This document shows, piece after piece, positions 10,625 to 22,089 of a stretch of DNA of 24,328 nt. The stretch covers positions 1 to 24,328 of the IMG/VR virus record IMGVR_UViG_3300023197_000041; one strand, written 5' to 3'. The position numbers and the translations under genes were made by a program. Under the pieces are notes generated by a model. It had not been told where the DNA came from. It did no database searches and saw nothing but the letters and a program-made list of their open reading frames with translations. Position 1 is the first letter of the stretch, and each line of letters starts with the position of its first letter. Origin of the DNA: a virus (Duplodnaviria; Caudoviricetes).

Positions 10625-13600
10625 TTAGTACCTCGTGTCGGCCTCGTAGTCGGTGTCCGCTTCAGCCTCGTAGTCACCCGAACGCTGAAGCGTCGTGGTG
10701 AACGCGAACGTGTTGTCCTTGCTGTCCACCGTCACTTCGTGGGCAACCACCACCGATTCGACTTCGGCGGAGCCTGCCCCGACGCGAACCGTGGGGATTA
10801 CCGCCCGAACGTTGCCGTCCGCGTCCGTCGAGGCGAACACGGAGGCCTCATCGAGCGGTAGCACCTCGACGTTCACCGACCGGACCACCGACACCGAGGC
10901 CGTCTTCGGGTCAAGCCGCTGGTGGCCGAGGGCATCAAGCCGCGTGGTCTGTGCCTGTGCGACCGTTCCCGTATGGCCCTTGGCAACCGACGGCGTGACG
11001 AGCATCTTCTCGTCGCTCTCGATGAACGCCGTCGCGGTCGAAGTCCCGGTGCCGAACTCCGACGTGACCGACTCCCCGACGACCTTCGCCGTCCGGGTCG
11101 TCGTGTACGCGCTGGCCGTCACCCCGCTGGCAGAACCAGCGGTAACTCCACCGGCCCACGTCGCCGTGTCACCAGCCCCGGTCGTCGGAGTCAAACCACC
11201 GGAGGGTGCGTGTCCATCAGCGGTCGCTCTCGCGTCCACGCTGGCGGTCACAGGCGACGCCGTGGCAGACGAGACGTGTGCATCGGACGTGGTGTCCGTC
11301 GCCGCTGTTGCGGTCACGTCGCGGCTCTCGACGGTGGTCACGCCGTGGGTGGTTGCCCCGGAGTGTCCACCACCTCGGGTGTCCGTCGTCGCCCCGACCT
11401 CGGGGCCATCGACCACGAGGCCAGCATCGGCTCGATGAGGCGTCGCGGCAGTCTGCGTCATTCCGCCGTTGATGCCTTCGGAGTGAGCGCCGCCGGTCGT
11501 GACCGTAGAGGCCGAGGCCGACGCCCCGACCGAGCCGGTCGAAGCGTGCGGCTCGACCGTCGCCGGACTGCCACTCGCCGTCGCCGGAGTACCCGGCCCG
11601 GTCGTCGTGGTGTCCACGGTCGCGGTTTTCGGCGACGCCGACGCCTCGACCGTGCCCTCAGCAGTCGCCGAGGACGCGCCGTCTCCGACTTTCGAGGTCG
11701 GGGAAGCCGTTTGGGTCCCGTCGCCAGTCGCGCCAGCGTGCGGCGCGGCCTGCGCCGTGCTCGCGGTCGCTGTCGGCGACGACCCGTCGGCGGTTGCCCC
11801 GGCGTAGCCCGTGGTCAACGGCGAGGCCGTCATCGGGGTGATGCTCCCCGTAGCGGTCGTCACGGCTTCGGGCGACGCTCGAATCGTAGACGCGAGCATC
11901 CCGTCCGTGGTCACGACCGCGGTCGAGGAGGTCTTCGAGGCCACCCCGAAGGTCTGAGCCAGCGAGTCCTCTATGCCACCAGCGTTCGTGCTGGTGTCCG
12001 CAGTCGCCACAACCGGCGAGGCCGACGCCCCGGCGGTTGCCGCGTCAGCCGTCAGCGACGAGCCTGCCGTCGCCGTGACCGAACTCGCGGTGGGCTGAAG
12101 CCCGGTGGCGGTGGTTCCGGTCGTCGCGGCCCCGTCAGTCGTTGCCGAGGCCGTAGTCGGAACACCCGGACCTGTAACGGTCGTGTCCGCGGTCGCAACC
12201 ACGTCGTCGGCGGTCGCGGCCTCGGTAACACCCGAGCCGTTGACGGTCGTGTACGCAGTTGCGGTCTTCGGCGTGGTCGATGCCGACTCCACGCCGTTCC
12301 CAATCATTTCCTTGATGGGAACGACCGTTTTCGGCGAGGCCAGCGCCGAGATGATTTCGCCACGACTGGTCGGACTCACGTCCGGTGCTCTCGGCGATGC
12401 GCTCGCCGCTGACAGCGTTCCAGCCGCGGTCTGTGTCGTAGAGGGTGTCGCAGTCGAAGCGCCAGCAGACGACGCTACGACGCCGCCATCGGCGACGGCT
12501 GTCGTGCCGCCCGACGCGGGTTGTCCCGACGCCGACGCTGACTCCCGACCACTACCGGAAGCCGACGCCGAGGGGGAAGCCTCGACCGGCATCGTCTCGG
12601 CGGCGGAAGCCCCGCCAGCGGCGGCGCTCGTCGCCGCAGTAGCGCCGGAAGGGGTAACGGTCGTGGCAGTCTTTCCGCCCGTTGTCGCGCCGACGTGCGG
12701 CTCTGCGCTCGCCGGGGACGAACCGGCAGTCGTAACGCTTCCGTCGTCGTTCACGACCGCCGAGCACGAAGCCGTCCTTGTGCTCGTGCTCGATGAGGCG
12801 GTCACGCCGACCGCCGTCGTAGACGCCGAGGGCGAAGCCACGGTAGTCGCGGCTTCGACAGTTCCCTGTTTAGCAGACGACGTAGCGCCCGTTTGGGCAG
12901 TCGCCTGCTTGACCCCTGCGACCGCGCCGGTCGTCGGGACGACCGTGGTCGAACCCGTCGCGGGGTCAACCGTCAGTTCGGTGGTCCCGACGTTGGTCGT
13001 AGTCACGTCCACGGTCACGTCGGCGCGGGACGCCTGCGGCGTCATCGAAGCGGACTCCGCCGTGGCTACCGCCGTCGTGGTCGTGTCCGCCGTCGCCGTG
13101 TCCGTCGAAAGCGTCGCCGTCTCGGCGTGTGGCGGTGTGTGAACCGTTCCGCGGTTCTCGATGGTGCCAGCGTAGTGACCGCCCGTGTTCTTCGGGTTGC
13201 CGTTGGCGTCGAGGCCGTCGTAACCCGCCGAAGTGGACGAAGACCCCGAGGGAGTGCGAAACTCGAACGTTCCCGACTGGAACGACGCGGCGTCGTACCC
13301 CGAGATTGTCGCACCCGGCGACACGGCGACGTAGCCGTAAGGACTCGGGAGTGCGCCGTCCTCGTCGTACCAACTAATGTCCGTGGAACTCCACGTCGAG
13401 GCTCCGCGCACCACGTCACTCGACCCGTCGTGGGCCAGCGAGTCGGCCACATAGTCGGGTTTCGAGCTGAAGGACTGCGAAAACGTCGCAGACGTGGATG
13501 ACGTGCTGGACGCTTCGACCGGAACGCCGTCGAGCGTCATCGCGCCGTTGTCGGGAAAGGCAATCCACCCGATGCTCTCGATGTGGGTGTTCTCGGCGTC

Positions 13601-14095
13601 TTCGGAGATGAGCGCGAGGTCGAACCCGTCCGTGGTGACGTTCGAGATGCCGACGCTGGCGAACAGACCGTTGTTGTGGGTGTTCACCATCGCCACGACG
13701 ACCGGAGCCGTACTCCAGTCGTGCTCGAACTCGACGTGGTTTCCGTTCCACGGGTCGTCCCAGTGGGCCGTCTTGGTCTGGTGCGTACCCGACTCGATGT
13801 GATGGCCCTCGGGCGTCTCATGGACACCTTCCTCGGCGACGAAGTACGTCACCGTGTTGTCCATGTGGCCCTGTTGGTCGGGTTCGTGCTGGAAAACGTC
13901 ACAGCTCGAGCCTGAAACGTTGGTCGCTCGGGTGTCGATGAATTGGCTACCGTTGTTGGTGGCGATATGGGCAACGACAACAGGGTTGTCGTAAATCTGA
14001 GTGAAAGAAACCGAAGCAGAGTCCGCCGCGTTCTGAATACCGGCGCTGTCGCCGGAGAGGTACACGCGGTCAGCCTCGAAAGCTGTCGTTGCCAT
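10625..14095 (-). CDS. Long fibre/adhesin-like protein: N-terminal lectin-like beta domains plus a Thr/Ala/Ser-rich repeat shaft
   Basis: 1156 aa. The first ~270 aa carry 2-3 repeats of F-x-x-x-(Y/W/F)-x-x-x-P-V-V-V-A...NV...H...(Y/W), resembling H-type lectin domains. The remainder is aromatic-poor with a ~20-22 aa degenerate periodicity (ASASP-like motifs). Confidence 0.7.
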   Translation of the reverse strand: MATTAFEADRVYLSGDSAGIQNAADSASVSFTQIYDNPVVVAHIATNNGSQFIDTRATNVSGSSCDVFQHEPDQQGHMDNTVTYFVAEEGVHETPEGHHIESGTHQTKTAHWDDPWNGNHVEFEHDWSTAPVVVAMVNTHNNGLFASVGISNVTTDGFDLALISEDAENTHIESIGWIAFPDNGAMTLDGVPVEASSTSSTSATFSQSFSSKPDYVADSLAHDGSSDVVRGASTWSSTDISWYDEDGALPSPYGYVAVSPGATISGYDAASFQSGTFEFRTPSGSSSTSAGYDGLDANGNPKNTGGHYAGTIENRGTVHTPPHAETATLSTDTATADTTTTAVATAESASMTPQASRADVTVDVTTTNVGTTELTVDPATGSTTVVPTTGAVAGVKQATAQTGATSSAKQGTVEAATTVASPSASTTAVGVTASSSTSTRTASCSAVVNDDGSVTTAGSSPASAEPHVGATTGGKTATTVTPSGATAATSAAAGGASAAETMPVEASPSASASGSGRESASASGQPASGGTTAVADGGVVASSAGASTATPSTTQTAAGTLSAASASPRAPDVSPTSRGEIISALASPKTVVPIKEMIGNGVESASTTPKTATAYTTVNGSGVTEAATADDVVATADTTVTGPGVPTTASATTDGAATTGTTATGLQPTASSVTATAGSSLTADAATAGASASPVVATADTSTNAGGIEDSLAQTFGVASKTSSTAVVTTDGMLASTIRASPEAVTTATGSITPMTASPLTTGYAGATADGSSPTATASTAQAAPHAGATGDGTQTASPTSKVGDGASSATAEGTVEASASPKTATVDTTTTGPGTPATASGSPATVEPHASTGSVGASASASTVTTGGAHSEGINGGMTQTAATPHRADAGLVVDGPEVGATTDTRGGGHSGATTHGVTTVESRDVTATAATDTTSDAHVSSATASPVTASVDARATADGHAPSGGLTPTTGAGDTATWAGGVTAGSASGVTASAYTTTRTAKVVGESVTSEFGTGTSTATAFIESDEKMLVTPSVAKGHTGTVAQAQTTRLDALGHQRLDPKTASVSVVRSVNVEVLPLDEASVFASTDADGNVRAVIPTVRVGAGSAEVESVVVAHEVTVDSKDNTFAFTTTLQRSGDYEAEADTDYEADTRY

Positions 14096-15579: not shown

Positions 15580-16371
15580 TTAGTCCTCCTCGAACTCGGT
15601 CGGGTCGTAGTCCTTGTCGCCGTCGGCGAGCGCCTGCTGTGCCACATCGGCCACCACGTCGTGCTGGCGCTCCTCGGCTTCCATCGTGTCCATCTTCTGA
15701 CGCTCTTTCGGCGTGAGGCCGAGTTCCTTGAGCATCGAGATGATTTCGTCCACGAGAAGCCGGTACTCGCGCGAAAGCGCGTTCTCCTCCGGCTCCTCGC
15801 CCACGACGACGCCATCCTCATCGAACACCTCTGCGAAGTGGACCTCGCCCTCCTCATCGAGGTAGTCCTCCGCTCGCTCGGAGCGGACGACGTTCGTGGC
15901 CACCTTGCGGAGCATGAGATACCGCGCGGGGTCCTCATCCTCCGAAGGCCAACCGTAGACCTCCGGCCACGTTTCCACGATAGAGTCGTAGAGCGTCTGC
16001 TCTGCGTCGTTGAAGTCCATGCGTAGATGCTCGTCTTCGGCGTAGACGCCGTGCTGGATTGCGACCGTCAGCGGGTCGGGTCGGTCCTCGTCAGAGATGT
16101 TGTCCGAGAAGTCGCCGCCGTGGAAAGGACACGAGGGCGCGTAGGCGGCCTCATCGAAGCGATGCCCGTCGTAGTCGTCTCGCTTCGAGGCGCGGCGTTG
16201 GCAGTGGCGAGTCGGGCCGTCGTACTCGTCAGGTTGCTTACCGATTTCCGTCAGGCAGTACGCAACCTCGAACGGAACCCCGTGATTCTCGTACAGTGGA
16301 GAACTCCGGTGTTCCACCCGCATTTCTGCCAACTCGTGAGGGGTTGCACCCGTGACTTCGCTCTGAGCCAT
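15580..16371 (-). CDS. terS: Terminase small subunit (putative) with an N-terminal Cys/His finger
   Basis: ATG 16371 (MAQSEV...). Contains IQHGVYA, ENAL and the P27-type ELGLTPKER motif; N-terminal C...C...CPFHGG; first gene of the structural operon. Confidence 0.75.
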   Translation of the reverse strand: MAQSEVTGATPHELAEMRVEHRSSPLYENHGVPFEVAYCLTEIGKQPDEYDGPTRHCQRRASKRDDYDGHRFDEAAYAPSCPFHGGDFSDNISDEDRPDPLTVAIQHGVYAEDEHLRMDFNDAEQTLYDSIVETWPEVYGWPSEDEDPARYLMLRKVATNVVRSERAEDYLDEEGEVHFAEVFDEDGVVVGEEPEENALSREYRLLVDEIISMLKELGLTPKERQKMDTMEAEERQHDVVADVAQQALADGDKDYDPTEFEED

Positions 16372-16669
16372 GCGTAGTGTAGAAACTCGTGGGTTCCAGC
16401 CCACGGGGTCTAACCCCTCTAACGGGTTCCTTTCCGATGACGCCGCGAGTGTTTGCTGTCGAGTTGGAACACGGGAATCAGTCCTCGGGGACTAAGCCCC
16501 GAGGGGGTCCCATCCCGTGCTGTAAGCCTCGAAGTGGTGCGCTTCGAGTGTTTGCCACGAAGCGAGTACCCACTGGGGGAGCACCCATTAGGGGATGCCC
16601 CTCCGCGCGAGCACGCGCGCGAGGGCTGGTGCCCGTCCGGGGCACCCGTTCCACTCCTATGAAAGCACA

Positions 16670-16685
16670 TCTTCTTAAATACCGT
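16670..16685 (-). promoter_or_regulatory. Putative promoter of the packaging/structural operon
   Basis: Minus strand ACGGTATTTAAGAAG is the clearest TATA-like element upstream of terS; it implies a ~280 nt leader. Confidence 0.5.
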
Positions 16686-16872
16686 GGGGGGTGGGGACCC
16701 ACCGGGCGACGCCCGCGCCGCATGGCGCTCGTCGCCCCCGCCGTGTCGGAACGCTGAGGGGTCAACCCTCAGAGGTTGTATTTCGGAATTACAACCCTCA
16801 CGGGTTTAGTACCGGCAAGAAGTTCGCCTTCTGAGCCGAACCGCGTCGAGGTTCGGGAGTAGGGCCGAAATT

Positions 16873-17133
16873 TCAGTCAGAACCCGAGTCTACTAAGTCC
16901 GAACCGTACCCTTCGCGGACCCCCGTACCCCCGTCGGACTCGGGAAGGTCCCCCGTGGGTGTCTCGACCGAGGGCATCATCCGGCGGAGCAAGTGGCCCG
17001 TCTCCTCCGCGCCCGGCTCATCGAGTGCTTCCACGTCTTCGATGACTTCCTCGATGACCTCCGCGGAGTGCTCACCCTCCAGTTCGACGCCCGCCTCCTC
17101 CAACCGTGCTTCAAGTTCGTCAGGCAACTGCAT
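16873..17133 (-). CDS. Small acidic hypothetical protein, probably leaderless
   Basis: MQLPDELEARLEEAG..., 86 aa from ATG 17133, directly downstream of a promoter-motif copy. Confidence 0.65.
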   Translation of the reverse strand: MQLPDELEARLEEAGVELEGEHSAEVIEEVIEDVEALDEPGAEETGHLLRRMMPSVETPTGDLPESDGGTGVREGYGSDLVDSGSD

Positions 17134-17163
17134 AGGTGTGGCAACACCCCGACGGTACTTAGT
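17131..17163 (-). promoter_or_regulatory. Viral promoter motif, copy 3 (divergent)
   Basis: Minus strand ACTAA-GTACCG-TCGGGGTGTTGC-CACACCT-ATG, same spacing as the copies at 17845 and 19988. Confidence 0.55.
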
Positions 17164-17340
17164 CGTGAGGTTGGCCACCTGACGTTTCCCCCCGAAAATC
17201 AGGTGAGCACCGCACACCGTCGCGTGCCAAGTTACCAACTTTCGCGCGCACGTACCCGCGCTCGTGTGCTAACCCTCGCGGGCCTCGTGCAGGCTTGACG
17301 CGCCCTTCCGCAGGGGGTACGGGGTCGCGGGCGCAAGGGT

Positions 17341-17666
17341 GGCAACACGTCAAGCGTGTGAGCCTACGTCCGGGGGCCGGCGGGGGTACGCTCACGGCCA
17401 CCCTTACTCGAAGGGTAGACACCCTTGGCAAGGCCCTCAGCAGGCAGTACGGCAACCTCGGGTTGGCAACCCTCCAACAGGCATCCCGGCAACCACCCCT
17501 CCATAGGGAAGGCTCCAGCAAGGTTCGCAACCCTTGGTTTCGGGGGGTTGGAGCAACTAACACGGCGGTTCTCAATCACGGTCGGCAACCCTTGTTCGGC
17601 AGATAGAGAGGCTATCTCCGGTCGGAACGGCAGGCTCAGAGGTTCTACCCTTCAGTCGGCAACCGT
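17341..17666 (+). repeat. Array of (G)GCAAC(C) motifs
   Basis: GGCAAC at 17341, 17451, 17465, 17488, 17584 and 17658, plus CGCAACCC at ~17525; all in the same orientation in non-coding DNA. Confidence 0.6.
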
Positions 17667-17836
17667 GGGTGGTATCCCCTAAGTTTAAGTAGCAGAGCGG
17701 CATGGCGCGTGCGCGATGCGCGACCCCCGGCTCGGAGGGTTCTTTTCCGATGAGGCTCCGTCGCACAGAACCCCCGCTACGGTTAGGCGCGCGCGCCCGC
17801 CGGGCCTTGGCCCCCCGCGCGTCGCCCGCGAAACCG

Positions 17837-17881
17837 TCGAAAGGTTTAATACCCCTCGGGGCGTTAGTACTACCTGCGATG
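17837..17881 (+). promoter_or_regulatory. Viral promoter motif, copy 1 (leaderless ORF 17879)
   Basis: TCGAAAGG-TTTAA-TACCCC-TCGGGGCGTTAG-TACTACCTGCG-ATG: purine-rich BRE plus TATA ~30 nt before the ATG. Confidence 0.8.
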
Positions 17882-18769
17882 TCCGACCGAACCGATGCCG
17901 CGACGACGATGGCAACGCTCGCAGAACAGGCCCGCGACCTCGCCCACGAGGGCGTGCTCGCGTTTGACGCAACCGGCGAAACCCTCGAAATCACCCTCGA
18001 AGGGGGGTTGAAAACCGAAATTCCGCTCGACGGCGACGCCCGCGACACGGGCGACACGGGCGACGCGCCCTCGGGCGAAAGCGCGGACACGGGCACGGAC
18101 GCCCGCGATGGCGACGCCGAGAAGGCCGAAACTGCCGGGTACAAGTGTTCTTGCGGCGAAACTTGGGCCGCGAACGTGGACCCGCAGGCCCCGCACGGCC
18201 ACACGGGCGGGACCACGGGCGAGCACACGCTCGTCCGCACGCCCGATGGCGAGGCCGAATCCGCCGAGAACGACGACGAGAAGGCTTCTGAAGGAGAATC
18301 CGCGAACGACGGCGACGCGGGCGACACGCCCGAGAGCGCACACGCCACGCTCGGCCTCGCCCGCGACGACGCGGCCCCCGCGAACCTGACGGAACGGGAC
18401 GCTGACACCCTTGAGAAGGCCGTTGAGGCAAGCGCGTACCGGTCTCGCACGGACGACGCGCTCGCCACGCAAGCGGGCAAGGCGCTCGCCAGCGAACGCG
18501 GCCTCGCCCGCGAAGCGAAGGCCGACTTCTTCAAGGCCCTTGGCTTCGGAATTTGCGGGGCTGAAGGGTGTGAACTTGCCGAAGCCGGGTTCGAGCGAAC
18601 GGGTTGCGGGCGGCACGAGGGCACGGACGCGGTTGCGGGCGAAGCGGGCGACGCGGGCGAAGCGGGCGACGCGGGCGACGGCGAAGGCCCGAGCGAAGCC
18701 GCGCTAACCCTGCTCAAACACGACGACAGCGTTTCTACCCTCGAAGAAGCCGAAGCGAAGGTCGCGTAA
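17879..18769 (+). CDS. Acidic hypothetical protein with two Cys/His motifs
   Basis: 296 aa from ATG 17879 (MSDRTD...). Motifs YKCSCGETW...H.H...H and C-x4-C-x11-C-x2-H; AG(E/D) tandem repeat at 18635-18685. Confidence 0.8.
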   Translation: MSDRTDAATTMATLAEQARDLAHEGVLAFDATGETLEITLEGGLKTEIPLDGDARDTGDTGDAPSGESADTGTDARDGDAEKAETAGYKCSCGETWAANVDPQAPHGHTGGTTGEHTLVRTPDGEAESAENDDEKASEGESANDGDAGDTPESAHATLGLARDDAAPANLTERDADTLEKAVEASAYRSRTDDALATQAGKALASERGLAREAKADFFKALGFGICGAEGCELAEAGFERTGCGRHEGTDAVAGEAGDAGEAGDAGDGEGPSEAALTLLKHDDSVSTLEEAEAKVA

Positions 18770-18943
18770 GCGGGCGAACGCCCGCGACACGCCCGCGATA
18801 GGCGGGCGACGCGACGCACCGCGCGACCCTCGCCCGCGAGGGGCGAGCGGGCAAGGGGCGTAGGCGCGAACCCCTGCGCCCCCTCGCCCGCCCTTCGCCC
18901 GCGAAGGGTCGAACCAACCCTTACGGACACGACCTTCCGACCT

Positions 18944-19249
18944 ATGAGCAACGACGCACGCGATACGACGGACGAATCGCCCGCGAACCCCCTTCCCGTG
19001 ACGGACGACGCGAACCCTTCAAGGGTGAAGGCCCTTGAGCGCGACCCCGCGAACGGCTCGCCCGAAGGGTTCGACCACCCCCTTGACCACTACCTCGCTA
19101 TCCACCGCGACGACCTCATCGCGGAGGCCGCGAGCCGCCGGACGAGCGACGAGCGAAGGGTCACGGAACCCTTGGCGAAGGCCCTTTGGGCGAGGGAGGC
19201 TTGGCTGGTCATCTACCCGGACGAGCGAAGCCCCTTCGCCCGCGAATAG
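18944..19249 (+). CDS. Hypothetical protein
   Basis: 101 aa, preceded by the GACAC...GACCT-ATG motif and followed by a terminator. Confidence 0.7.
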   Translation: MSNDARDTTDESPANPLPVTDDANPSRVKALERDPANGSPEGFDHPLDHYLAIHRDDLIAEAASRRTSDERRVTEPLAKALWAREAWLVIYPDERSPFARE

Positions 19250-19276
19250 CGAACGACCGGCGAACCCTTCCGAAGA

Positions 19277-19304
19277 CCCCCTTCCAAGGGGGCTACTTTT
19301 TTTT
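19277..19304 (+). terminator. Hairpin plus T8 terminator
   Basis: CCCCCTT-CC-AAGGGGG followed by CTAC-TTTTTTTT; the only long T-tract I saw in the window. Confidence 0.75.
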
Positions 19305-19979
19305 GCGCGTGCGCGAGGGCGAGCGACCGCCCGAGCGACCGCTCGATGACGCCCGCGACGCACCCTTGAGCACCCTTGCGAAGGGGGTCAGACCCTTCTG
19401 GAAGGGGGCAACGCGCGGGCGAAGCGCGAGCGAACGCCTTCGAGCCGCGCGAGCGGCCTCGAAGGGTGCGCGGGGCCTTGCGAAGGGGCTTGCGCGGGCG
19501 ACCTCATCGCGCTGACTCCCGCGAGCGACCGCTCCAGCGAGCCTTCGCAAGGGTTCGGGCGGGGGCAAAGGCCCTTCGGGGGCGGCCCATCGCGGGCGAT
19601 TGCTTCGCGGGCCTCTATCGCCGGGCCGGGGGTCGCCGGGGGAAGGCCCCGCGCGTCGCGCCCCCTCCGCGCGTCCCGGTCCAAACGCGCGCCTCCGCGG
19701 CCCGGTTCTGTTCAGCAGTCTCAGCGCCGAAAACTTACGGAACCCCACCGCGGTTGCCGACACCGAAAGCGGTTCGGGGGGTAGAGTTCCAGATACGGCA
19801 GTCTGTGGCAGTCTCAAGGCATCGAGCCGCCGGATTCTTGACGCTGAGTTTAAGTAGGGGGCAGAGAAATTTACAGGGTCGGAGAGAGTTGAATTAACGG
19901 AGTTCTGCGGTGTTCCCCGGAACCCCGATTCCGGCGGTAGAGCCCCGTTAGCCTGTCGAAATCAACGGCGTTCAGAGTT

Positions 19980-20021
19980 TCGACAGATTTAAGTAAAGTC
20001 GGGGCGTTAGCACTATCTGTG
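19980..20021 (+). promoter_or_regulatory. Viral promoter motif, copy 2 (no ATG downstream)
   Basis: TCGACAGA-TTTAA-GTAAAG-TCGGGGCGTTAG-CACTATCTGTG, colinear with copy 1 and sharing an identical 12-mer. Confidence 0.75.
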
Positions 20022-21016
20022 CTCGCTCGCCCCGCGCCGGGCGGCGGACACACGGACCCACACACGCGGTCTGTTGTGTTCCGCCGCTCCGGCCCCCACA
20101 CGTAATATGTGGGGTCAAGGGGGCCTTCGAGCACCCTTCGGCTGGTTAAGGCCGGAGGGGATGTACGCGATGGTCTGAACCCGGTAGGCCTTCCCAAGGG
20201 TCGTAAGGGGGATGACTCAAAGCGGGACGGTTCGACAAGTCGCGGGGGACACCCGCGATGTGCCACGAGCCGCCGAATATCTAAAGGGGTCGCCGAAGGC
20301 TGGTTAAGGCCGAAGGCCCACGGACGCCCCGAGTTCGCACCCGAAACCCATCGCGTGAAGTTAGCCTTGTTGCGGCCTCCGGGCAGACACCGCAAACGAC
20401 GCGCCCAATCTTGGCCCTCGCGGGTGAAGGACCGATGACGCGGGCGATATGCAGAGGTTCCCTCGGAAGGGTTGAAAGCAGAGCGTCGCGGAAGGTGCGG
20501 GAGCGATGCGGCCCGCTAAGGGTGGAACACCGGCCCCTTCGGGTAATCCGTCCGAAACCCTCACGGGTGAACGACGCCTCGAAGGGTGGGAACCGGGGAA
20601 GGTGGTTCGCGTGGAGCGAAGGCAATCGTCCACGCGATAGCCGACGGAGGCCGACCGACAACTGATTGCCCACGATGGCACCGGGGTAGAGCCAAAGACT
20701 GCCACGGACCTGTCACCCATCGAAGGCCTTCGCGGAGGCACCGCGAGGTACGACCGGCGAAGTGCTGGAGGGTAGACACAAGCGAGTAACCCGGTTAAGG
20801 GTCGAAAGCACACAAATGGCGCAACGGCGCGAACGAAGGGTCAGGTATCAGGCCCAAGTGCTCACGGCGATGAAGCCCCGCACCCTTTCCGGCAGGATTT
20901 TCGCCGGGGCGGTCGGTAAGGGCGAGGGTCGCATCGAGCGGCCTTCGCCCCCGACCCCGCTTCGTCCGAGCGGCCAACAATCGGACGCGAAGCCCACGCC
21001 TGCGATAGTGGCGGGA
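20019..21016 (+). ncRNA. Candidate large (~1 kb) structured non-coding RNA or giant 5' leader
   Basis: No acidic ORF; starts at promoter copy 2; near-continuous helices with G-U pairs on the plus strand, long-range pairings and repeated GGUUAA loops (see findings). Confidence 0.6.
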
Positions 21017-21030
21017 CACAACTACGACCT

Positions 21031-22089
21031 ATGAGCGACGCTTTCGGACTCAACGAGACGGTTTCGGTCGAATCGGACACGAACAACGCTGGCGACTCGG
21101 ACGCGGGCGATGACGCGGGCGATGTGACGCCCGATTACGAGGCGAACGAGACGACGGACTACTACCTTGCCTTCGGTGACACGAAGGCCGCAACGGACAC
21201 CATCGCGGAAGACTCGGGAATCACGCTTCCGAACGTCAACACCTACGAGAACGACCTTTCGGACCTCCCTCGCCTGCTCGGCGAGCACAGCGAGGCTCAC
21301 CCGCAGGCGAAGTTGTGGCTGGCCTACGCGCTGGCGAAGTCCTCCTTCGGCGACCGGCAGGCCAGCGAGAACCCGAAGATGCTCGGCGCGGGCCTCGATA
21401 CCTCGGGCGATTCGGAGGCGTACCCGAAGCCCCTCCCGAACGACCCCGAGGCGGAGCAGTTCCGCTACGCCGATGTGTACCGGAGTCTTCCCACCATCGA
21501 GACGGAAGGCCTCAAGCCGGGCGAGCGGGAAAAGTTCGCGGAGATGGACGTGGAGCCGGACACCCTCGGCTTCCGCGAGGAGGAAGGCCCCCACATCCCG
21601 GTCATCGGCGGCGAGCGGCTTCCCATCGCGGCGGCTTCGGACGAGGACGTGCAGGACGCGATTGACCTGCTGACCGAACTCCCCGACGAGCCTTCGACCG
21701 CTGACCCCATCGAGGGCGACAGCGACGAGGGCGACGACACGAGCGATGCCTCGGGCGACGACGACGGCGAGACGGTCTTCTGCCTCCGTGAGTCTTCGGA
21801 CGGAACCCCCTGCCGGAAGGAGGTCGATTCGCCCGACGAAGCGTGCAACTGGCACGATGCTGGCGACCCCCGCCTCACCGACTACGAGGAAGGGGGCGAC
21901 ACGGACGAGGCTTCGGACGAGGACGTGCAGGAAGCCGTCGAGGACGATGCCGATGAGGCCTCGCAGGACACCGACGCGAACAACGGCGGCGAGATGCCCG
22001 AAGCCGTCCAGACCCTCCTCGCCCACGACGAGGAGTGCGCGACCATCGAGGACGCGAAGCAGAAGGCCAAGGAGCACGGTCTGGTCTAA
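21031..22089 (+). CDS. Highly acidic hypothetical protein with a C-x9-C-x10-C-x2-H finger
   Basis: 352 aa containing FCLRESSDGTPCRKEVDSPDEACNWH; 24-bp internal direct repeat at 21633-21656 and 21909-21932 (ASDEDVQ). Confidence 0.85.
   Translation: MSDAFGLNETVSVESDTNNAGDSDAGDDAGDVTPDYEANETTDYYLAFGDTKAATDTIAEDSGITLPNVNTYENDLSDLPRLLGEHSEAHPQAKLWLAYALAKSSFGDRQASENPKMLGAGLDTSGDSEAYPKPLPNDPEAEQFRYADVYRSLPTIETEGLKPGEREKFAEMDVEPDTLGFREEEGPHIPVIGGERLPIAAASDEDVQDAIDLLTELPDEPSTADPIEGDSDEGDDTSDASGDDDGETVFCLRESSDGTPCRKEVDSPDEACNWHDAGDPRLTDYEEGGDTDEASDEDVQEAVEDDADEASQDTDANNGGEMPEAVQTLLAHDEECATIEDAKQKAKEHGLV

Follow-up and report, generated by a model that had tools for sequence, protein, structure and literature searches.

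Short hairpins, three of them capped by the same GGUUAA loop, recur between positions 20134 and 20812 of the viral DNA analysed here (the window, 24,328 nucleotides in full), raising the question of whether they belong to a functional RNA and what a shared loop on several stems might do. The window is a 24-kb virus fragment with terminase, portal and capsid genes on the minus strand, and by sequence it is a fragment of a Hafunaviridae halovirus. Its portal is 60-61% identical to those of 8 records of the HSTV-2/HRTV-7 group (Mincapvirus) and less than 60% identical to those of 45 other records, for example HF1/HF2 (Hafunaviridae); blastn with the window sequence matched zero phage records.

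The repeats listed in the initial annotation were all recovered at their stated coordinates. The 15-nt exact repeat, GGCTGGTTAAGGCCG, is found at 20140 and 20298 and has no further copy on either strand, the shared loop word GGTTAAGG occurs only at 20144, 20302 and 20793, and the twofold word AAGGGTYGAAAGCA is found at 20467 and 20797. Units of the form RCCC-N4-6-GGGT-(N)GAA start at 20414, 20511, 20557 and 20789. All six reported copies of TAAGG exist, but only 5 lie inside 20134-20812, the sixth being at 20917. AGUA (20785-88) and GAA (20804-06) do flank the third hairpin, as the claimed likeness to a bulged-G motif would have it, but an extra C (20803) separates the stem from GAA and the match is imperfect. 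Chance was assessed with 2000 dinucleotide shuffles of 20090-20830, using patterns picked after the sequence had been viewed: the 15-nt repeat was reached in 1 shuffle, five TAAGG copies in 2, and three GGTTAAGG copies or four RCCC-loop-GGGT-(N)GAA units in none.

A syntenic non-coding element

The hairpins fall within a stretch of about 1 kb that begins behind a promoter-like motif and ends at a protein-coding gene:

19981..19995, + strand: predicted archaeal promoter, a CGACAG box and a TTTAAGTA TATA-like box (motif shared with relatives)
20015..21030, + strand: predicted structured non-coding RNA or leader of ~1 kb, the whole element (nhmmer, folding, 9 lineages)
21031..22089, + strand: gene for an acidic 352-aa protein, function not assigned (PHROG 32210, E 2.9e-6)

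Searches with nhmmer detected the first relatives at syntenic loci with E-values of 1e-22 to 1e-28. Scanning yielded true element matches at 7 of 36 viral loci, 8 of 17 metagenome loci and 0 of 4 GTDB loci; two further scans gave 8/48 true matches, one of them new (L074), and 8/37, none new. The element is present in all 8 Mincapvirus-group phage records, and the cultured viruses that carry it include HSTV-2, HRTV-7, HRTV-2, HRTV-11, HCTV-6 and HCTV-15. In HSTV-2 (NC_020159.1) its locus is at about 66298 to 65143, on the minus strand. Near-identical sequences were merged to leave 9 lineages: the window, L007 (HSTV-2; with L008 and L115), L074, L002, L030, L036, L003, L023 and L054 (which includes L059, L033, L048, L050 and L049). 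All 9 are syntenic, with 44-75% identity in a matrix calculated without L074. A wider family outside haloviruses was considered and rejected, as pattern matches gave no nhmmer match beyond the pattern itself; among non-halovirus pattern matches (9/17 metagenome, 4/4 GTDB and most viral loci), the 13 inspected look protein-coding. The exact pattern of the third hairpin was found in 0 viral contigs.

Members of the 352-aa protein family lie 3′ of the element at every locus examined. The window protein is a homologue of HSTV-2 gene 102; 9 aligned homologues are 23-36% identical, and the nearest protein relative, P0012, is 61% identical. Pfam gave no match for this protein, and a search among viral contigs returned none.

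At the 5′ side, a promoter-like motif of the form CGACAG...TTTAAG/TTTATG precedes the element across lineages. The same motif is at the same place in L007, L115, L074, L030, L003 and L023 and is visible in L002 and L036, while the corresponding region of the L054 group has only CCTTTAAGT; HF2, Serpecor1 and VOLN27B carry the motif as well. With the -26 spacing given in the accessible text of PMC8707807, we infer a transcription start near 20015. A second TTTAAGTA box occurs at 19849, and the upstream segment 19797-19814 is complementary, over 14 nt and at 93%, to the conserved core segment 20696-20709.

Several observations indicate that the element does not encode protein. The 8 ORFs that overlap it are basic (D+E 0.03-0.10, K+R 0.12-0.26), in contrast to a D+E of 0.19-0.27 in the five viral ORFs checked, and no conserved acidic ORF of halophilic composition was found among them. 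Spacings between anchors shift out of frame between relatives, and phage records that are 99% identical annotate from 1 to 4 different ORFs over the element. The short hypothetical genes annotated there in GenBank records are probably spurious. Rfam produced 0 matches at the gathering score in the window and just 3 unrelated sub-threshold matches in the 9 loci (E 3-4), with no model of group I/II introns, RNase P or rRNA fragments matching in either; ARAGORN found no tRNA in the window. No terminator-like site was found inside the element up to the next gene, and no description of the element was found in the open-access literature. E. coli 16S and 23S rRNA gave no nhmmer match at E<=10, and model R1 had no match in L186. 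A likeness to domain I of 23S rRNA was also rejected: four short words do exist in E. coli rrlH, there is no nhmmer or CM match, and as many shared 10-mers as were seen are expected by chance. We predict that the element represents an uncatalogued family of large structured RNAs of haloviruses.

Other features of the window were recorded in passing. A terminator-like hairpin with a long T run (19277-19303) lies 3′ of a 101-aa ORF (18944-19249) and is followed by ~400 bp of GC-rich palindromic non-coding DNA. The genome terminus or a terminal repeat is probably located in the gene-poor 1.3 kb (16404-17700) that separates the small terminase gene from a TTTAAGTA promoter (17684). The acidic ORF at 17702-18769, which has a CSCG...H motif, low-complexity repeats and no PHROG match, sits in the slot of HSTV-2 gene 104, and its translation probably begins further downstream than listed. 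On the minus strand, 10625-14095 encodes a 1156-aa Thr/Ala/Ser-rich low-complexity protein, upstream of terminase and likewise with no PHROG match.

Covarying helices and a pseudoknot in the core

All column pairs were searched in an alignment of 11 of the 14 sequences, three near-duplicates of L054 having been left out. The structural features of the core are as follows:

20224..20342, + strand: conserved three-way junction with GGG/CCC, CGGU/GCCG and CGAAU/GUUCG pairings and a near-invariant AUAUCUAAA internal loop (RNAalifold on A2)
20260..20264, + strand: 5′ strand of the pseudoknot, GUGCC, pairing with 20677-81
20369..20381, + strand: 5′ strand of a long-range helix, pairing with 20645-20659 (13 pairs, 100% of cells paired, 2 double changes)
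20645..20659, + strand: 3′ strand of that helix, pairing with 20369-81 (20373-81x20645-53 in the column-pair search)
20677..20687, + strand: 3′ strand of the pseudoknot (20677-81), then directly the 5′ strand of helix 20682-87x20875-80
20701..20820, + strand: helix GCCA/UGGC (20701-04x20817-20), closing a second variable domain (covariation)
20875..20880, + strand: 3′ strand of the helix with 20682-87, after a conserved ...AUGA joiner
20912..21017, + strand: three predicted 3′ hairpins, the last ending 13 nt before the ATG (A3 fold)

Four long-range helices with compensatory changes were identified, all paired in 11/11 sequences. The helix of 20369-81, in which one double change differs between HSTV-2 and HRTV-11, closes a variable domain that contains the units at 20414, 20467, 20511 and 20557. 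The pseudoknot (20260-64x20677-81) arises out of an internal loop and occurs as GUGCC/GGCAC, GUGGU/ACCAC and GUGUC/GACAC, paired in all 11 sequences, with double changes at 2 pairs. The 6-bp helix 20682-87x20875-80 exists in six sequence versions, all paired, with double changes at 5 of its 6 pairs, and helix 20701-04x20817-20 becomes GCCG/CGGC in HSTV-2 and HRTV-11. Pairs of the three-way junction are kept in 9-11 of the 11 sequences and are mostly invariant (RNAalifold, A2). In the A3 fold of the 3′ hairpins, the first of which has a conserved 3-nt bulge (20917-19), 13 of 24 pairs show double changes.

Across the 11 sequences of A5, 92.4% of cells were paired over the 48 pairs counted, compared with 28-45% in slid controls, and double changes were present at 12/48 pairs, compared with a shuffle mean of 7.7 (0/500 shuffles reached 12). 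Because the helices were derived from the very alignment used for the counts, and from ~9 related lineages, these controls are not independent proof. Two of the 9 helices scored poorly: one had been entered one pair off register, and the other is misaligned at the alignment end and is supported in A3. In L023, one helix is out of register. Folding was better than in shuffled sequences on both strands (z of -5.9 on + and -4.9 on -), and the element was assigned to the + strand because of the promoter and because one-sided changes in the helices are of the G-U type on that strand. The minimum-free-energy structure of the window sequence by itself includes neither the pseudoknot nor helix 20682x20880.

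Some further pairings were considered. We do not claim that the 5′ and 3′ ends are joined by a conserved helix, as duplexes form at inconsistent positions, and a bulge-helix-bulge at the 20917 bulge was rejected by inspection since there is no second bulge. Window positions 20133-20141 and 20881-20892 are both complementary to 20152-20163, and the base of the first hairpin could switch to long-range pairing (-22 kcal/mol), inconsistently in relatives. Inspection of L002, L003, L023 and L036 suggested a possible second pseudoknot of one clade, absent from the window, in which the conserved loop UUCCAC/CUCCAC could base-pair with GUGGAG, itself conserved; the two sites correspond to ~20548 and ~20762. 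TTTATA occurs in the loop of the first 3′ hairpin (homologous to window 20931-20940) in L002, L030, L036 and L023; ~85 nt before the ATG, it is a possible internal promoter, also absent from the window.

Taken together, synteny and covariation place the hairpins within a conserved, structured non-coding element, predicted to be an RNA, in agreement with the initial annotation on this point.

Variable arms and their loops

All of the hairpins first noted in the window sit in peripheral arms, the lengths of which vary by tens to more than 100 bases:

20134..20159, + strand: hairpin arm a, GGUUAA loop (20144-49), in a variable 5′ domain (loops differ among relatives)
20298..20312, + strand: hairpin b, GGUUAA loop (20302), tip of a variable arm of the three-way junction
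20414..20429, + strand: GCCC-UCGC-GGGU-GAA unit, a lineage-specific hairpin in a variable arm (alignment)
20467..20480, + strand: AAGGGUUGAAAGCA, first copy (counterpart in relatives)
20511..20523, + strand: GCCC-GCUAA-GGGU (alignment to relatives)
20548..20576, + strand: CGAAA internal loop and ACCC-UCAC-GGGU tip (20557) (alignment)
20785..20807, + strand: hairpin c, ACCC-GGUUAA-GGGU with AGUA and C-GAA flanks, in a variable arm

GGUUAA had been proposed as a conserved loop presented on varying stems. The loop itself is not kept: on a 4-bp stem it occurs in 1 of 9 lineages, the window, and in 0 of the 8 others, so the claim fails as it was worded. The principle of one loop on varying stems does recur at the same arms in L002, L030, L036 and L003. 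Arms a and b carry AGUUC in L002 and L030, CAUUA and AAUUA in L036, and CUUCU in L003 (CUUCUA at arm a), with other loops at arm a elsewhere; the b loop equals the a loop in the window, L002, L030 and L003 and differs by one change in L036. In L007, L074, L054 and L023 the two arms bear unrelated loops. Arms a and b of one genome have longer words in common than arms taken from different genomes do (diagonal sum 79; mean of 6.2 per off-diagonal cell; 0/20000 permutations). Against the same-genome background, sharing is clear in 4 of the 9 lineages (window 0/106, L002 0/164, L030 0/29, L036 0/36), marginal in 3 (L003 8/164 and, more weakly, L007 12/147 and L074 2/32) and absent in 2 (L054 31/33, L023 19/30).

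A looser pattern, NNUU(C/A) on a 4-bp stem, which was defined post hoc and takes the form GGUUAA in the window, is present in 2-6 copies in 8/9 lineages and absent in L003. It exceeds shuffles (p<=0.024) in 7/9 lineages and is not above chance in L023. Its UU(C/A) core is kept on different stems and different arms in both clades.

The remaining units have diverse counterparts. As a conserved unit, RCCC-loop-GGGU-GAA did not hold up, with a match in 1/14 other sequences scanned (L002). The 20414 unit is absent from L007, L115 and L074, and its flanks (CCCAAUCUYGG) are common to L003 and L023. These two lineages have AAGGGACGAAAGCAG at the place of the 20467 word, the 20797 copy of which is confined to the window. 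At 20511, the UAA of relatives seems to form one strand of an internal loop or junction, not a hairpin loop; the site reads UAA in L007, L074, L054, L002 and L003, and GCA or UCA in L030, L036 and L023. In the 20548-76 arm, NGAAA or NGAAG is kept in 8/9 lineages and the sequence of the tip hairpin is not. Arm c is deleted in L030 and has AAUUA in L036 and UGUUC in L002; its AGUA/GAA flank is not conserved, and HSTV-2 has a clean AGUA/GAA-flanked hairpin on a neighbouring arm.

Copies of TAAGG are structurally unlike one another: the one at 20917 is the conserved 3-nt bulge (UAA/UGA/UUA), that at 20204 is a predicted internal-loop strand, and that at 20517 aligns to internal-loop or junction strands of relatives. 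TAAGG is thus not one motif. Beyond the element, RCCC units occur at 18897 and 19014, CCC-N4-6-GGG is equally dense in 16001-17000 and 20001-21000 (8 vs 8), and GAAGGG is denser in 19001-20000 than in 20001-21000 (6 vs 3). The RCCC-loop-GGGU-GAA and TAAGG "units" mostly represent unrelated structural parts together with a regional sequence idiom. Overall, the initial interpretation is partly supported.

Possible functions of the element

We tentatively favour, with doubt slightly uppermost, a reading in which the hairpins are the variable outer arms of a pseudoknotted RNA of Mincapvirus-like haloviruses and their U-rich loops provide multivalent docking for one virus-specific partner. Transcription of the element would start from the TATA box at 19988 shortly after the DNA enters the cell, a timing suggested by analogy because the equivalent left genome arm of HF2 is transcribed early, at 0-1 h (PMC8707807, accessible text). 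The pseudoknotted core would fold compactly and organise the arms, and one partner protein, most likely virus-encoded or else a U-rich-binding host factor, would bind two to six loops at once, the RNA acting as a decoy, or as the scaffold of a ribonucleoprotein, while the host is taken over. The joint change of loops within a genome suggests either a common partner, not the same from virus to virus, or gene conversion.

The loops had initially been compared to a CsrB-like sponge for a host protein. Sponge RNAs of the CsrB/RsmZ type display one fixed loop motif (GGA) on several stems of one RNA. The three GGUUAA loops of the window resemble this arrangement, but the motif of the element changes between viruses and has only 2-6 copies, and a conserved pseudoknotted core dominates the RNA. 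A sponge for a conserved host protein is accordingly a poor fit, and a partner varying with the virus fits the loops better.

Alternatively, the element could act in cis as the 1-kb leader of the first early operon, serving antitermination, processing, translation control or possibly as a ribozyme, with the loops as intramolecular tertiary docking modules. We think this rather unlikely. The element may be a leader because no conserved terminator precedes the next gene; in the window it fills the space between the promoter and a point 13 nt short of the ATG, and the gene that follows is the same at every locus. Many invariant unpaired A-rich residues would suit a leader or ribozyme, and the available portion of PMC3088659 places a hammerhead of HF1/HF2 13 nt before a gene. 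However, no complement of the loops, and no receptor for them, was found to be conserved among the lineages, the TTTATA of the 3′ hairpin loop in four of them could be a separate promoter, and no known ribozyme model in Rfam matches the window or the 9 loci.

We consider it improbable that the core is functional and the hairpins neutral, as stable caps copied by local duplication or gene conversion and assembled from a CCC/GGG idiom near the genome end. Such processes could homogenise arms without function, arms are freely lost or replaced, the RCCC unit also occurs outside the element, and the CCC/GGG and GAAGGG words are equally dense or denser elsewhere in the window. Against this, homogenisation affects the same arms in at least 4 lineages but with different loops, and selection is tentatively favoured over gene conversion because the UU(C/A) core is retained on different stems and arms in both clades.

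ROOL and GOLLD are large RNAs associated with phages. Like them, the element is large and highly structured, with a conserved core, variable linkers, long-range covarying pairings and no assigned function (PMC12286853, partial text); its large size, many covarying helices and long-range pairings are features of OLE as well. A protein-free oligomer or cage of this kind would agree with the size, viral origin and core-and-arm organisation of the element. In the text available from PMC12286853, covarying "tertiary" pairings of ROOL and GOLLD proved intermolecular; in a cage of this kind, 20260-64x20677-81, not the UUAA loops, would be the best candidate bridge. The element differs in belonging to an archaeal virus and in having no Rfam match to ROOL or GOLLD at E<=5. 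UUAA kissing, put forward in the initial annotation, was rejected as a conserved mechanism. Palindromic 4-nt cores occur in two loop types, UUAA of the window and AAUU of L036, and thus in 2 of the 5 lineages with a loop shared by arms a and b; AGUUC, CUUCU, ACUUC, UGUUC and GUUUC have none. No complementary partner lies at a homologous position, and there is no palindrome-to-palindrome covariation, the symmetric kissing-loop signature of OLE L9.3 or GOLLD L21a. We regard a cage as quite improbable.

Mimicry of haloarchaeal type I-B CRISPR repeats by CCC-loop-GGG-UUGAA units, titrating Cas6/Cascade as an RNA anti-CRISPR, is exceedingly improbable and was rejected: the AACCC and GTGGG motifs and 3-bp stem before the handle of the haloarchaeal repeat (PMC4872114 and PMC6546412, in part) and a gapped alignment of 20455-20476 to a CRISPR repeat are countered by similarity at chance level to 4 repeat types read from arrays, 2 of them haloarchaeal I-B-like (window score 20 vs shuffle mean 20.2, 127/200; other 8 lineages p 0.42-1.0), and by presence of the pattern in only 2/13 other sequences. 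Solitary repeat units of RNA anti-CRISPRs are likewise virus-encoded RNAs with short CCC/GGG stems followed by UUGAA-like letters (PMC10651486, accessible part), but the element is ~30 times longer than one repeat. Separately, long haloarchaeal I-B-type CRISPR arrays were seen on contigs classed as viral (L134, L177, L118, L132 and L184); the L134 and L177 contigs are 81 kb and 54 kb in length.

The left-end region of Haloferacalesvirus (HF2 307-1969, Serpecor1, VOLN27B) resembles the element in lying before the first early gene, behind the same promoter motif, and in being hairpin-rich with several UUAA loops. It differs in its length of ~1.45 kb and is not alignable (HF2 nhmmer E 2); Serpecor1 and VOLN27B gave no nhmmer match to the element at E<=0.05. 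Model R1 gave no match to the left-end region. In HF2 (L009:500-1970), L227 and L228 this non-coding stretch after the promoter motif contains CCCTTAGGG hairpins and may represent another large RNA family occupying this slot; no description of it as an RNA was found in the portions of the literature available.

A broader version of the favoured reading, possible but with doubt clearly prevailing, is that the element founds a new class of large ornate RNA, made as soon as the DNA has entered, whose pseudoknotted core (perhaps bridging molecules to build a cage) displays an array of U-rich loops retuned in concert by each virus. Such an RNA would serve as a multivalent scaffold or decoy, in co-evolution with a viral protein or a host defence protein. 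Literature and database searches found no example of a large ornate RNA from an archaeal virus. Large structured non-coding RNAs of unassigned function are rare, and recent ones have yielded surprising RNA-only cages. A repeated loop that changes in concert genome by genome would be an unusual mark of co-evolution between an RNA and its partner, and since the element is carried by cultured viruses with known hosts, it is directly testable, in molar salt.
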